Below are positions 5,074 through 11,819 of a DNA stretch of 24,000 bases, one piece after another. A program made the position numbers and the translations under genes. This DNA comes from Nanobdella aerobiophila. Its GTDB lineage: Archaea; Nanobdellota; Nanobdellia; Nanobdellales; Nanobdellaceae. The first letter of the stretch is position 1; each line of letters opens with the position of its first letter. The stretch covers positions 411,053 to 435,052 of the forward strand of contig NZ_AP019769.1 of the NCBI RefSeq assembly GCF_023169545.1, given 5' to 3'. The notes beneath the pieces are model-generated. The model was not told the DNA's origin. It saw only the letters and a program-made list of their open reading frames with translations, and searched no databases.

Positions 5074-6600
5074 ATGATTAGATCATTATTTATAGATCTT
5101 GATAAGAAAGAATTTAAAAATGAAATAATAGATAATAGAACTCTCGATTATTCTATAATCTTGAATAAGGATATTTATAGGACCTACGAGAGAGATCCTT
5201 ATAATAACAATCTTACTATACTATCTGCCGGATATATAAAAGATGAAAATGATATAACTTCCTTATTAATATATAGGTCACCCATAACAAATTCTTTAGA
5301 TATAAATATATCTTCATTTGGAAAATATATAAGAAATACAGGAAATGACATGATAATATTAAAAGGAAGGTTAGATAAAAAATATTTTATAATAATAGAA
5401 AATGACAATGTAATATTTTTAGAGGATGATATAGAAGAAGATATATATAATAAAAAGGAAAAATTATATGGAGAATTAAAAAATATATATGGTAACGAAG
5501 ACTTTATATTATTATTAAACGGTTTAGGATCAAAATATACTATATATGGAAATTTAATAATATTTAAAGATGATAAGATTAAAGCAACAAAAGGTGGTAT
5601 AGGCTCGGTTTTATATAATTATCATAATATTTCCGGGATTTCTATCGGAGGAAATAACCATGTAAAAATAAATGAGATTAAGATAAATGAAAAAAATATG
5701 AATTTTCATGAGAACATTAATGATGTATACAACTTAATATATGAAAAAGTACCCATATTAAATTTTAAAAATATTTATCTGGCAAAAGAAGAAAATAAAA
5801 AAATTTTCGAAGATTTTATATATCCTTTGATAAATAATTTGAAGAAAAAATATCCATATGAGCCTTTTAATATGTTTGGGCCTTTTTTAGGTATATTTGA
5901 TGAAAATTATATTTCATTATTGATAGATAAGGCAAATAGATATGGTCTTGATACATTATATTTAGGTTTTATTCTAGGACTTATATTGGAAGGTCTTGCA
6001 ATGAACAAAGTAAATATAAATGGATTAAATAGTTCTATATTTGATTTTAATAATTTAGATAGATCAACAGAAAATAATTATAAAATTGTAGATTATCTAA
6101 TGGATAAAATCGCTTATGAAGAACTATCTATTCTAGGAAAGAATATAAGATATATTTCTAATATATTTAATCTAGACGATATATCTGTATATGCACCTTT
6201 GGGAGAATCTTATTCTGCAGTGTTCAATCCATATATATCATTGGGTTTGTTTTTACCAAATATAATATATGATAAATATTTTTCAGATCATTTAATGAAT
6301 CCTACTGATCCAGTTAGCTATGCAGAATTAAATTATGGAAGACTTGAATCAACATTTTATATAAATAATTTACATGATAATATATATAATTTTAAAAGGG
6401 ATAATGTTTTCGTAAAGATGTTAGAGTATCAGAAATTAACAAATTCTATGCCTAATTTTAATTATTCAAAAAGATTAAACGATATATACTTGTATATATC
6501 CAGAAATTATAATTTAAATTATACTTTTGAAGATTATTTTTTAAACTATTATAATAGATATAAAGAATTAATATATAATAATAAAGCCTCCGTAGTGTAG
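5074..6600 (+). CDS. Aldehyde:ferredoxin oxidoreductase (AOR)-family homolog, highly diverged and cysteine-free
   Basis: The blocks line up with my recollection of the P. furiosus AOR sequence. SPITN..FGKYIRNTGNDMIILKG matches SPLTG..FGAELKFAGYDAIVVEG. ATKGGIGSVLYNYHNISGISIGG matches AGRGGVGAVMGSKNLKAIAVEG. YEPFNMFGPFLGIFD......ANRYGLDTLYLG matches YESVWALGANLGIND......CDELGLDTISTG. The 508-aa translation contains no Cys. Confidence 0.7.
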   Translation: MIRSLFIDLDKKEFKNEIIDNRTLDYSIILNKDIYRTYERDPYNNNLTILSAGYIKDENDITSLLIYRSPITNSLDINISSFGKYIRNTGNDMIILKGRLDKKYFIIIENDNVIFLEDDIEEDIYNKKEKLYGELKNIYGNEDFILLLNGLGSKYTIYGNLIIFKDDKIKATKGGIGSVLYNYHNISGISIGGNNHVKINEIKINEKNMNFHENINDVYNLIYEKVPILNFKNIYLAKEENKKIFEDFIYPLINNLKKKYPYEPFNMFGPFLGIFDENYISLLIDKANRYGLDTLYLGFILGLILEGLAMNKVNINGLNSSIFDFNNLDRSTENNYKIVDYLMDKIAYEELSILGKNIRYISNIFNLDDISVYAPLGESYSAVFNPYISLGLFLPNIIYDKYFSDHLMNPTDPVSYAELNYGRLESTFYINNLHDNIYNFKRDNVFVKMLEYQKLTNSMPNFNYSKRLNDIYLYISRNYNLNYTFEDYFLNYYNRYKELIYNNKASVV

Positions 6601-6660
6601 CCAGGACAACATTCCGGGCTTCGGTCCTGGAGATCAGGGGTTCGAATCCCCTCGGAGGCT
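6586..6660 (+). tRNA. tRNA-Arg (anticodon UCG)
   Basis: Acceptor GCCTCCG/CGGAGGC, D arm GTGT-AGCCAGGACA-ACAT, anticodon stem CCGGG/CCTGG with loop CTTCGGT, T arm AGGGG-TTCGAAT-CCCCT, discriminator T. The first 15 nt lie inside the preceding CDS. The last nt is shared with the stop codon of the next minus-strand CDS. Confidence 0.92.
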
Positions 6661-7604
6661 TATATATCCTTATAAATTGTATTATATATTTTATTGATTA
6701 GATATTTTATCTTATATATATTTAAATTAAGTATATCTTCATGTTTTAATTCTTTAGAAATCTCATTAAAATCGTTTTTATTTAGTTTATTTTCATTAAA
6801 TAGTTTAATTATTCCTTCTGTAATATCTATATAATCTTCAGGTAAATAAAAAGATATATCTTCTAGCAATTTTAGAAAATTTATCATGGATTTATCGTCA
6901 TCAATTATTAAAGGTAATGCTTCGGCTGTATTTATGAATTTATATGCATAATCTTTATAATTTTTTCCTTTTTTTGATAATAAATAATTATTTATTATTA
7001 TATTTGCTAGTGGTGAAAATATAATATCTAATGCTATGTTCATCTTAAATCTGTTCAGATATAAATTATATACAGCTTTTATCTTTTTATTTTGTTTATC
7101 TAATATAAAATTTTTTATTTCTTTAGTTATATAGATTATATCTCTCTCTTTTAATCTATAAAATTCTTTTTCTTCTATAATATTTTTTAAATTATCTGTA
7201 ATTATGCTCAAAGTATTATAGTATTCATAAGAAAATCCAATATTTTTAGAGAGAGTTCTTAATCTTCTATTATAATCAGTTAAACTATAATAAGAATATG
7301 GTAATCTTTTTTTATATAGATCATAATTTTTTATTATATCTATATAAGATTTTATATCTAATTCTTTAAATAAGCTATCTATTGATTTTCTTAATAGTTC
7401 ATCTATATTTTTATAAGTTATTAATTTACTTGATCTTATTGTTTCAATAAGATTTCTAGCAAATATTCTTTCTTTTTCATTATTAATATTTATCTTTTTT
7501 ATATCTTCTTTATTTATCGAATTTATAAAATTTAATATCTCTAATAAATCAACATTTGGATTTATATATTTTATATCTATTTGATAGTAATTATCTAAAC
7601 CCAT
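6660..7604 (-). CDS. Hypothetical protein (314 aa, predicted mostly helical, soluble)
   Basis: A long ORF that fills the gap between tRNA-Arg and the methyltransferase gene exactly. I recognise no motif. Confidence 0.6.
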   Translation of the reverse strand: MGLDNYYQIDIKYINPNVDLLEILNFINSINKEDIKKININNEKERIFARNLIETIRSSKLITYKNIDELLRKSIDSLFKELDIKSYIDIIKNYDLYKKRLPYSYYSLTDYNRRLRTLSKNIGFSYEYYNTLSIITDNLKNIIEEKEFYRLKERDIIYITKEIKNFILDKQNKKIKAVYNLYLNRFKMNIALDIIFSPLANIIINNYLLSKKGKNYKDYAYKFINTAEALPLIIDDDKSMINFLKLLEDISFYLPEDYIDITEGIIKLFNENKLNKNDFNEISKELKHEDILNLNIYKIKYLINKIYNTIYKDI

Positions 7605-7628: not shown

Positions 7629-8678
7629 TTATATCTTTTTAATTTTTGCAATATAAAATCCCTCTGTATCATTATCCCATGGCCATATCCTTACAGTATT
7701 TCTTATATCTTCTAGATTTTCTATCTTATATTTTCCATATTCTTCAATTATTTCTGATTTATTAAGATTTGGTATGTTTATTTTTTCTATTTTTGCATTT
7801 TCTCTCTTTGATAATAAATAATCTACTATAAACTCATTTTCTAATGGTTCTACAGAACATGTTGAATATACTAGTGTCCCTCCTTCTTTTAAATTATCAA
7901 AAGCTTTAATTATTAATTTCTTTTGCAAATAACTCAATCTATTTATAGCATCGTTGCTCCATATTTTTAATGTCTTATATGATTTTCTTATTGCTCCAGT
8001 TCCAGAACATGGTGCATCTAGTAAAATTTTATCGAACTTAATATTTAATCTATCTATTTTTAACCCATCCATCATGGTAACTATTGTATTTATAATACCC
8101 TGCTTTTGTAAATTTTCACCTAAAGCTCTTATTCTATTTATATCAACATCATTTGCTATTATTAATCCCTCATTTTCCATATGCATAGCAATTTGTGTCG
8201 TTTTTGAACCAGGTGCAGCGGCGAGATCTAATATCACATCATCTTTTTTTGGATCCAATGCTATGGGAGGTATCATAGACGCAGCCTCTTGTGGATAATA
8301 ATAACCTAGTTGGAACTCTACAGTATTTCCTATATCCCGTCTATAACCATCTATCCAAAATCCATATTTATAAAATGGTATCCTCTTTATTTCCCAACCA
8401 TAATCTTTCAATCTGGATAATACTTCTTTTGCCGATATGTTTATTTTAAATGGATTTTGCCTTAAATTATATATATTATCTATTTCTTTTGATATATATC
8501 TTAAATTTTCTTCTTTTATTATGCATTTTAGGTTATCATAATTTATGTCGTCTATTAATTTTATTGTATTTATTCTTATAGCTTTCTTTAATAGTCTAAA
8601 GGACCATTCTAAAAATTTATCATAATCTTTGTCTAATAATCTCTTAAAATGCTCTTCAAAGCTTTCTTTTATTTCCAT
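7629..8678 (-). CDS. NOL1/NOP2/Sun-family RNA (cytosine-C5)-methyltransferase, archaeal Trm4/RsmB-like
   Basis: The SAM motif is DLAAAPGSKTT. The catalytic cysteine motifs are DAPCSGTG (motif IV) and LVYSTCS (motif VI). Confidence 0.9.
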   Translation of the reverse strand: MEIKESFEEHFKRLLDKDYDKFLEWSFRLLKKAIRINTIKLIDDINYDNLKCIIKEENLRYISKEIDNIYNLRQNPFKINISAKEVLSRLKDYGWEIKRIPFYKYGFWIDGYRRDIGNTVEFQLGYYYPQEAASMIPPIALDPKKDDVILDLAAAPGSKTTQIAMHMENEGLIIANDVDINRIRALGENLQKQGIINTIVTMMDGLKIDRLNIKFDKILLDAPCSGTGAIRKSYKTLKIWSNDAINRLSYLQKKLIIKAFDNLKEGGTLVYSTCSVEPLENEFIVDYLLSKRENAKIEKINIPNLNKSEIIEEYGKYKIENLEDIRNTVRIWPWDNDTEGFYIAKIKKI

Positions 8679-8728
8679 CAGTCGCTATCTAATCATCATC
8701 ATTCAGGAGCGTAATGCTTCATCATTAA
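8676..8728 (-). ncRNA. C/D box sRNA (2'-O-methylation guide RNA)
   Basis: The minus strand reads AAUGAUGA|AGCAUUACGCUC|CUGA|AUG|AUGAUGA|UUAGAUAGCGA|CUGA|UGG. C box is at 8719-8725, the 12-nt guide at 8707-8718 and D' box at 8703-8706. A 3-nt loop follows, then C' box at 8693-8699, the 11-nt guide at 8682-8692 and D box at 8678-8681. All four boxes match consensus exactly. The RNA ends are approximate. Confidence 0.8.
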
Positions 8729-8735
8729 AAAATAT

Positions 8736-9242
8736 TTATTTTTTATTTACTAAAGCTTCAGTTATAACTTTTTCTGCTTCTAATTTACCCTTAAATTCTT
8801 TTATTTTTACATATTTACCTGGCTCTAATTCCTTGTAATGCTCATAAAAGTGTTTTATTTGGTTTAATATTGCTTCCGGTAGATCTTTTATATCTTTTAT
8901 ACCTGAAAATCTAGGATCTATTTTATCGATTGGGACTGCAATTATTTTTCTATCTGTACCTTTCTCATCTTCTGTAACTAATACTCCTATTGGTCTTGCG
9001 GATATTATAGAGCCTGGGAATAAGATATCATATGATATCACTAATACATCCAATGGATCTCCATCTTCTTCTAGTGTTTCTGGTATAAATCCATAATTAA
9101 ATGGATAAAACATTGCCGTATATAGTATCCTATCTACCCTCATTACTTTCTCTTCTTCATCAAATTCGTATTTTACATTACTTCCCTTTGGAATTTCTAT
9201 AAAAACATTTATATCCTCTGGTGGATTCTTTCCAGCTTTCAT
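8736..9242 (-). CDS. ppa: Inorganic pyrophosphatase (family I)
   Basis: [33 protein letters not shown] and a 168 aa length are typical of archaeal family I PPase. Confidence 0.95.
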
Positions 9243-10478: not shown

Positions 10479-11819
10479 TTATTGAGGTTTTTGCGATAGA
10501 TATAAATTAAATATATGTTCTAAAGCCTTTTTATTATCATCGAAATCATCTTTTTTATATGATTTAGTGCTTTTTATTATATCTTCTAGATTATATAGTT
10601 TTGTATTTTTAAAGATAATTGATTTATAATCAAAATAATTATTTTCTCCTATAATATCTTTGTATATGTCATCTATAAATTTATTATCATTTGTATCGCT
10701 AGAACATATAACTTCTGACTCTTCTTTTTTACAATATTTAAATATTTTTATCTTTTTTATACTATCTATTAAATCTTTAGTATTTTCTAATAATAAAGAT
10801 TCTAAAGTTTTGCTATTTGTAGGTACTTCTAATCCTGAAGCTATATCTATATAATTTATATCATTTCCACCTCTAGTAATCTGATATAATGCAATATCAG
10901 ATATCGAATATTTATTATCTACTACAGATTTTATTATCAATTCTATCGAAGAAGTTAGTTTATATAAAAATTCATCATATGGTAATTTTACATAAAAATT
11001 ATTTAAATTATCTCTATCAAATTCAAATTTATAATCTAATCCAAGTATATATGAAGGTATTGTTGGATTTTTAACTATATCTGATATTATTAATGCTGAA
11101 AGATTATTTTTTGCAGTTAATATTGGCATTATATACATATCATACGTTCCTTCTTGGTAATATAATATATAGGGATTTTCTTGATAATATGGTTTGCTAA
11201 TGTACCTTAATTCTTTTATATTTTTGTTATTGATAATTAAAGGCATTCCCAATAATAAAGGTACATAATATATTCCATATATATTCTTTTTTAATGCCCT
11301 GTATTTACTTTTTATATCTTTCTCTACGTCTATAGTATGGTCAGCTAAGAATTTAGAGTTATATGGTCTAATCTCGCTTAACTTTATTTTTTCCCCTTTT
11401 TTATTATATAATATTAAAGATTCTGGTAGCTTTCTTCTAAACTTCTCAATATTAATATCCTTTCTTTTGTTACCTATTAAAGTTTCATATAATATTTCAT
11501 CATCTTTTATTCTTATTGAAACCCTAAATTTATCAAAAGTACTACTCACTAATTTTTGATAAAATTCCCCATAATTATTATAAAAATTTTTACCTATTAT
11601 ACCTCTATTTTTTAAACTTTTTAAATATTCTATATTCGGCAAGTATTCAGAGTAAATCTTTGGAAATATATCTTTTTTATCAGTGTATTCAGAACCATTA
11701 TTTCCTATAAAAAAATATGAACAACTATTATATTCTTTATTTATTATCCTTCGAATATAATTTATGTATTCATTAAATGACTTTAGATTACATATTTCAT
11801 CTATTATATTATTATCCAT
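10479..11819 (-). CDS. Uncharacterised protein, paralog A of an unrecognised family (446 aa)
   Basis: A long ORF sharing collinear blocks with the ORF at 12415-13692. YISKPYYQENP is identical in both. SYILGLDYKFEFD aligns with PYILGLSYKFELD. KLPESLIL aligns with KLPESTIL. YQIT..G....IDIASG aligns with YQIT..G....IDIAPG. There is no P-loop, Cys cluster, signal peptide or TM segment. Confidence 0.8.
   Translation of the reverse strand: MDNNIIDEICNLKSFNEYINYIRRIINKEYNSCSYFFIGNNGSEYTDKKDIFPKIYSEYLPNIEYLKSLKNRGIIGKNFYNNYGEFYQKLVSSTFDKFRVSIRIKDDEILYETLIGNKRKDINIEKFRRKLPESLILYNKKGEKIKLSEIRPYNSKFLADHTIDVEKDIKSKYRALKKNIYGIYYVPLLLGMPLIINNKNIKELRYISKPYYQENPYILYYQEGTYDMYIMPILTAKNNLSALIISDIVKNPTIPSYILGLDYKFEFDRDNLNNFYVKLPYDEFLYKLTSSIELIIKSVVDNKYSISDIALYQITRGGNDINYIDIASGLEVPTNSKTLESLLLENTKDLIDSIKKIKIFKYCKKEESEVICSSDTNDNKFIDDIYKDIIGENNYFDYKSIIFKNTKLYNLEDIIKSTKSYKKDDFDDNKKALEHIFNLYLSQKPQ

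Follow-up and report, generated by a model that had tools for sequence, protein, structure and literature searches.

Several systems described in archaea come close to the locus that we report here. In N. equitans, the C/D box sRNA9 was represented by 19,600 RNA-seq reads and its guide was predicted to act on a G of the 23S rRNA, and the genes of sRNA2, 5, 11, 17 and 25 adjoin RNA-modification genes (Randau 2012, PMC3491384). The helix 68-71 zone of 23S rRNA is a methylation hotspot (Dennis 2015, PMC4644070). In the summary given by PMC7994747, 7% of archaeal C/D sRNA genes overlap the 5' end of an ORF on the same strand (Tripp 2017), the start codon often lies in a guide or right after the D box, and in Sulfolobus such 5' overlaps reduced expression of a downstream reporter (Tripp 2017). 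Lui 2018 (PMC6009581) associated 5' overlaps with orphan D guides and discussed excision of the sRNA and interference by L7Ae.

The window analysed here, a stretch of 24,000 nucleotides from the genome of the small archaeal symbiont N. aerobiophila, contains a 57-nt spacer between ppa and a gene for an RNA m5C methyltransferase, 47 nt of which are boxes and guides. A previous sequence-only reading had proposed that this spacer holds a C/D sRNA with four boxes and that the last A of its D box is also the A of the methyltransferase ATG. Both proposals were confirmed: the canonical boxes are present at 8725-8678 on the minus strand (Table 1), and the shared A is kept in all 13 genomes of the genus. 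The C box to D box span is 48 nt, with a 3-nt linker between the D' and C' boxes, a geometry that fits archaeal C/D box sRNAs (guides of ~10-13 nt, total length of ~50-60 nt). On the minus strand, a U6 tract lies immediately 5' of the C box.

Table 1. Positions of the sRNA parts and flanking genes, counted from the first base of the window.
Feature	Position	Strand	Basis or remark
NOL1/NOP2/Sun-family RNA m5C methyltransferase gene, 349 aa	7629-8678	minus	TIGR00446, 294.9 bits, over cut-off
D box CTGA	8681-8678	minus	final A (8678) doubles as first base of the methyltransferase ATG
D guide, 11 nt	8692-8682	minus	sequence; may be a relic of a guide to 16S helix 3 (U31)
C' box ATGATGA	8699-8693	minus	sequence and comparison with relatives
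D' box CTGA	8706-8703	minus	read directly
D' guide, 12 nt	8718-8707	minus	sequence and 23S pairing
C box ATGATGA	8725-8719	minus	read directly from sequence
Possible sRNA promoter in ppa 3' end	8727-8755	minus	weak TATA-like score here
ppa, inorganic pyrophosphatase gene, 168 aa	8736-9242	minus	NF002317, 239 bits, over cut-off

A strict four-box pattern matched six times in the 669-kb genome (668,961 bases, 24.6% G+C) against none in any of 10 genomes simulated with a third-order Markov model. With a relaxed box pattern we obtained 14 matches against none in five simulations, which puts the complement of the genome at about 14 C/D sRNAs. Fibrillarin, Nop5 and L7Ae are all encoded, each over its cut-off. 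At the gathering threshold, an Rfam search returned tRNAs only and no C/D family; under it, sR5 (RF01304) matched with 33.4 bits (E 3.7e-6; gathering score 40), as did many other C/D families. The similarity to sR5 lies in the boxes and not in the guides; with its score under the threshold, the element is not assigned to this family. Thermodynamic folding of the sRNA was on par with shuffled sequences (z -0.3); C/D k-turn RNAs are expected to fold no better than shuffles. The Rfam score under threshold could suggest that the four boxes arose by chance in an AT-rich genome, an origin whose probability we consider practically nil. It is ruled out by the empty result in all 15 simulated genomes, by the conservation of boxes and guide, by the presence of an rRNA target and by an ortholog verified by RNA-seq. 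In relatives, the boxes, the D' guide and the overlap of D box and ATG are all conserved; the C box is always RTGAWGA or a single-base variant of it, and the D' box is again CTGA in the 12 of 12 relatives found via the methyltransferase protein (in matches from the pattern search it is present by construction of the pattern). By its sequence and conservation, the element is a well-supported C/D box guide sRNA.

The sequence-only reading had also predicted a target of the D' guide with a G at N+5, and such a target exists in the 23S rRNA of the organism. The guide forms 10 Watson-Crick pairs with nt 1988-1997, its two terminal bases being mismatched, and the N+5 nucleotide is G1991, in a C:G pair, in line with the 9-10 or more bp to rRNA or tRNA and the Watson-Crick N+5 pair expected of at least one guide in such an sRNA; 2-3% of shuffled guides equalled this pairing. 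G1991 lies in the helix 70 region, near the subunit interface, and we take it to be E. coli G1935, from the alignment in PMC4644070 and with m5U1939 assumed as the anchor. We found no paper linking G1935 and an archaeal sRNA in a literature search. The target site is kept in every 23S sequence of the genus that covers it. The D' guide itself recurs in 17 of the 21 genomes of the order, with 0 matches for reversed-pattern controls, and, among 200 genomes of the class, in two from one other family, where it occupies the D position in at least one. At guide position -10, N. aerobiophila has a C:G pair with the rRNA, N. equitans a G:C pair and genome G027 a G:U pair, and we read these differences as compensatory change. 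From this pairing and covariation, the D' guide would direct 2'-O-methylation of 23S G1991. Since the same guide stands at the D' position of N. equitans sRNA9 and points to the same target nucleotide, the sequence comparison identifies the sRNA as an ortholog of sRNA9. The synteny differs, so the likeness may conceivably be convergent.

Three further C/D sRNAs of the genome, at 167314 (-), 474391 (-) and 547247 (-), aim at 23S nt 1996, 1970 and 1976, respectively; guides on 23S helices 69-71 occur in 4 of its 14 sRNAs. Two genomes labelled Woesearchaeota (contigs L092 and L091, each near 1450-1525) have the G1935 guide in the D position of a double-guide sRNA, which overlaps, in antisense orientation, a gene of ~160 aa at its 3' end.

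The element had been described as a double guide as well, and this description could not be upheld, given that the D guide lacks a passing target in this genome and differs among relatives. When it was compared with the rRNAs and tRNAs of the organism, no target passed, and 40% of shuffles scored equally; no exact match of at least 10 nt was present anywhere in the genome besides the locus itself. We rejected 23S nt 1918 as a target, the duplex having a mismatch at -4, beside N+5, and the site not being conserved. No relative shares the D guide of N. aerobiophila, whose sequence turns over: most other relatives have decayed A/T-rich forms, YN1 and two more genomes have distinct sequences, and the corresponding guide of N. 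acidilobi matches 23S nt 1872 over 10 bp (reached by 1.5% of shuffles). In a double guide both guides have a valid target, the two usually lying no more than 100 nt apart; here the D guide has none that passes.

We also considered that the D guide may methylate 16S U31 (helix 3, approximately E. coli U37) through a short duplex, which would make the element a true double guide. Indeed, the guide forms 9 Watson-Crick pairs from position -1 with the 16S rRNA of four sister species and 8 pairs with that of N. equitans, the N+5 nucleotide always being U31; 9 such pairs are reached by ~4% of shuffles, and 16S helix 3 is an archaeal methylation hotspot (PMC4644070). However, with its own 16S rRNA the guide forms 6 Watson-Crick pairs and one G-U pair (7 bp, again with U31 at N+5), less than the 8-bp minimum used in PMC6009581, and the relatives lack this guide. 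In addition, the match to U31 emerged after a scan of several guides and genomes, and we consider methylation of U31 by this sRNA unlikely. The D guide may be a relic guide for 16S helix 3, presumably dispensable and drifting, and the element, as far as the sequence indicates, would act as a single-guide sRNA like N. equitans sRNA9.

The enzyme encoded downstream belongs to its family with both catalytic Cys motifs present in the alignment, and scores below the cut-off of all equivalogs, Trm4 and RsmF included. Its closest structure is 1ixk (E 8.6e-61); it is closer to 1ixk and MJ0026 than to NSUN5, and the names of its database entries point to an enzyme acting on tRNA C48/49. The ATG at 8678-8676 is the real start: members of the class share the N-terminal helix, a stop in the same frame precedes the ATG by two codons, and the first 110 residues contain no further Met. 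The public annotation of the N. acidilobi protein (AMD30087.1) gives 304 aa, 52 fewer than its 356-aa relatives; its start is probably mis-called and misses the D-box ATG. Upstream, ppa has its own TATA at -29, and its stop codon lies 10 nt before the C box. Elsewhere in the window, tRNA-Arg(TCG) at 6586-6660 (+) overlaps the final 15 nt of the ORF at 5074-6600 (+) and reaches as far as the stop codon of a convergent ORF at 6660-7604 (-). This last ORF (314 aa) and that at 10479-11819 (-) (446 aa) had no Pfam or NCBIfam match.

The 16S gene (near G000:C1:622500-622570) ends without a CCUCC anti-Shine-Dalgarno tail, Shine-Dalgarno-like words stand before just 11 of the 504 long ORFs, and TATA-like words are most frequent 29 nt ahead of the ATG, from which we infer that most genes of this organism are leaderless or stop-start coupled. 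We found no TATA at -29 of the methyltransferase ATG in any genome of the genus and rejected for this reason a leaderless promoter of its own, whereas four other genes behind sRNAs in the genome follow after a gap of 32-37 nt that contains a TATA. The mRNA of the methyltransferase, which has no TATA of its own, most likely includes the sRNA as a leader or as an intercistronic spacer, judging from these promoter positions. The proposal that the sRNA lies within a ppa-methyltransferase transcript was thus supported as regards the methyltransferase, while co-transcription with ppa is not required: in 9 of 12 relatives, a TTTAAA precedes the C box by 31-32 nt. The promoter score is -0.6 here (76th percentile of random) against 7.1-8.5 in nine close relatives (97th-99th percentile); TTTAAA falls in ppa codons, and codon use is a rival cause of its presence. 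The transcript may start at the ppa promoter or at a promoter in the 3' end of ppa.

Two further readings of the locus were considered and rejected. Termination-reinitiation at the TGA of the D box was discarded because, in 11 of the 13 genomes of the genus, no start codon opens the frame that ends at this TGA. A short ORF of 8-9 codons, extending between the C box and either the linker or the C' box, is present in 12 of 13 genomes (it is frameshifted in N. acidilobi) but follows from the spacing of the boxes. Elsewhere in the genome, sRNAs at 278315 and 527769 (+) lie directly before the RNA-processing genes for archease and the Taw1 wyosine synthase, both of which have a TATA of their own.

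Gene order was compared among same-genus relatives, which include Nanopusillus, Nanobsidianus and YN1, and beyond them in the order, to which N. equitans belongs. The arrangement ppa-sRNA-methyltransferase with the one-base overlap is found in the 13 of 13 genus genomes and in ~15 more metagenome contigs. A sister genus (G015) keeps ppa-sRNA and has aIF2-gamma 49 nt after the D box, with no ATG at the D box, its methyltransferase being encoded elsewhere. The gene downstream of the sRNA is rps8 in N. equitans and, in G019, an RlmI-like m5C methyltransferase at a distance of 28 nt. Beyond the genus, the sRNA and the NOL1/NOP2/Sun methyltransferase are unlinked. Read from this gene order, the simplest history would be a single arrival of the methyltransferase in the genus ancestor, with the sRNA tied earlier to the 3' end of ppa. 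The sRNA would have settled behind ppa in the ancestor of the Nanobdella genus and its sister genus, and the methyltransferase gene, formerly elsewhere, would then have been placed directly behind it in the genus ancestor, its start being made of the D-box A plus TG. Such an overlap is cheap to make because a U often follows the D box, as in 19 of 25 N. equitans sRNAs (count from PMC3491384), and one added G gives AUG. The G019 gene (L068:293-1447, minus), which combines PUA and SAM domains, is a second, independent pairing of the sRNA with an m5C enzyme.

The sequence-only reading had noted that the guide is physically coupled to the m5C methyltransferase gene. A functional coupling of the two is not supported by these comparisons: the link is confined to one genus, ppa is the older neighbour and other neighbours are found elsewhere. 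One could still imagine that the sRNA and the enzyme are clustered for acting on the same rRNA region. Yeast C2278 presumably corresponds to E. coli position 1935, by offset count. This base is the methylation site of Rcm1, a NOP2/Sun enzyme, within the H70-71 cluster (PMC4174444), m5C methyltransferases make up two of the five known downstream neighbours of the sRNA, and several N. equitans sRNAs adjoin RNA-methyltransferase genes (Randau 2012, PMC3491384). However, the target base here is a G, so it cannot carry m5C, and the enzyme resembles 1ixk and MJ0026, with names pointing to tRNA, more than NSUN5. The NOL1/NOP2/Sun and RlmI-like methyltransferases are moreover unrelated families, and only 1 of the 14 sRNAs of the genome has an RNA methyltransferase among the scanned neighbours. 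We therefore regard a common rRNA region as a very improbable reason for the clustering.

The overlap raises a different question, that of translation. In k-turn geometry, the D-box A is part of a sheared G-A pair, and the assembled sRNP would thus cover the AUG; if the mature sRNA is trimmed out, the remaining methyltransferase mRNA would lose its start. The C/D k-turn might thus have been selected also as an L7Ae-dependent switch, in which free L7Ae or the sRNP represses translation of the methyltransferase, or commits the transcript to the sRNA. Although the D guide is free to vary, the exact overlap persists throughout the genus genomes and metagenome contigs, and the methyltransferase gene has no TATA, Shine-Dalgarno word or stop-start coupling. 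L7Ae is known to repress archaeal mRNAs via leader k-turns (PMC5539422), and the U tract that precedes the C box in this genome could form a weak duplex with the first codons (6-7 bp, two of them G-U). On the other hand, the genomes are close kin that represent one gain event, the D box and the ATG are each needed independently, so that their conservation needs no regulatory role, and the sRNA and the enzyme are unlinked outside the genus. By a crude test, moreover, TATA and coupling are likewise both absent from 113 of 509 long ORFs. We hold such a switch to be doubtful. Equally speculative is its extension to a genus-wide translational switch in which sRNP assembly sets the level of the promoterless methyltransferase and links two RNA methylation systems. 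If true, L7Ae gating would provide a conserved example from nature of the regulation proposed by Tripp 2017 and Lui 2018, and would give a handle on the translation of non-leaderless genes in an archaeon without an anti-Shine-Dalgarno tail; the genus-wide overlap with a promoterless methyltransferase is a good test case for it. Selection may have acted on the overlap, which is kept in the whole genus despite the loss of reporter expression that came with 5' overlaps in Sulfolobus (Tripp 2017, summarised in PMC7994747).

Altogether, the locus is probably best explained by a standard C/D guide sRNA with a D' guide to G1991, a drifting D guide and an overlap that results from compact packing. The product would be a guide sRNA of ~50-55 nt, bound by L7Ae, Nop5 and fibrillarin and trimmed out of a transcript containing the methyltransferase; the overlap of D box and ATG would then reflect compactness and not a common modification pathway. 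The locus contributes a well-supported guide together with the history of its neighbourhood, a literature search having found no paper on sRNAs of Nanopusillus or Nanobdella. It offers an example of one guide constant across the order while its partner decays and is replaced, and of a gene captured behind an sRNA with the D box used as a start.

The closest known relative, N. equitans sRNA9/NeqsR09 (PMC3491384, PMC4644070), shares with the N. aerobiophila sRNA the core of the D' guide, the predicted 23S G, the box geometry and a D guide without target. It differs at three guide positions, which track changes in the rRNA, has CAGA as D box and sits between TFB, which is divergent, and rps8 without overlapping a start codon. 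With the 5'-overlap sRNAs (Tripp 2017, summarised in PMC7994747, and category 1 of PMC6009581), our sRNA has in common the same strand, the start codon at the sRNA 3' end, a co-transcription and excision that are inferred and a D guide usually without target. Here, however, the overlap is a single D-box base, a length excluded by Lui et al. as too short to affect guides, and is fixed throughout the genus. N. equitans sRNA2, 5, 11, 17 and 25 likewise are C/D sRNAs adjoining an RNA methyltransferase gene in the same archaeal order, but the enzymes are other ones, the arrangement is mostly convergent, divergent or upstream and none is listed with a start-codon base in common. The k-turn in the l7ae 5' UTR (Daume 2017, PMC5539422) also lies at a translation start, although that k-turn hides a Shine-Dalgarno site and does not belong to a guide RNA; N. 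aerobiophila has no anti-Shine-Dalgarno tail. The guide is a known type of sRNA in a known type of arrangement, both 5' overlaps and methyltransferase-adjacent sRNAs having already been published.
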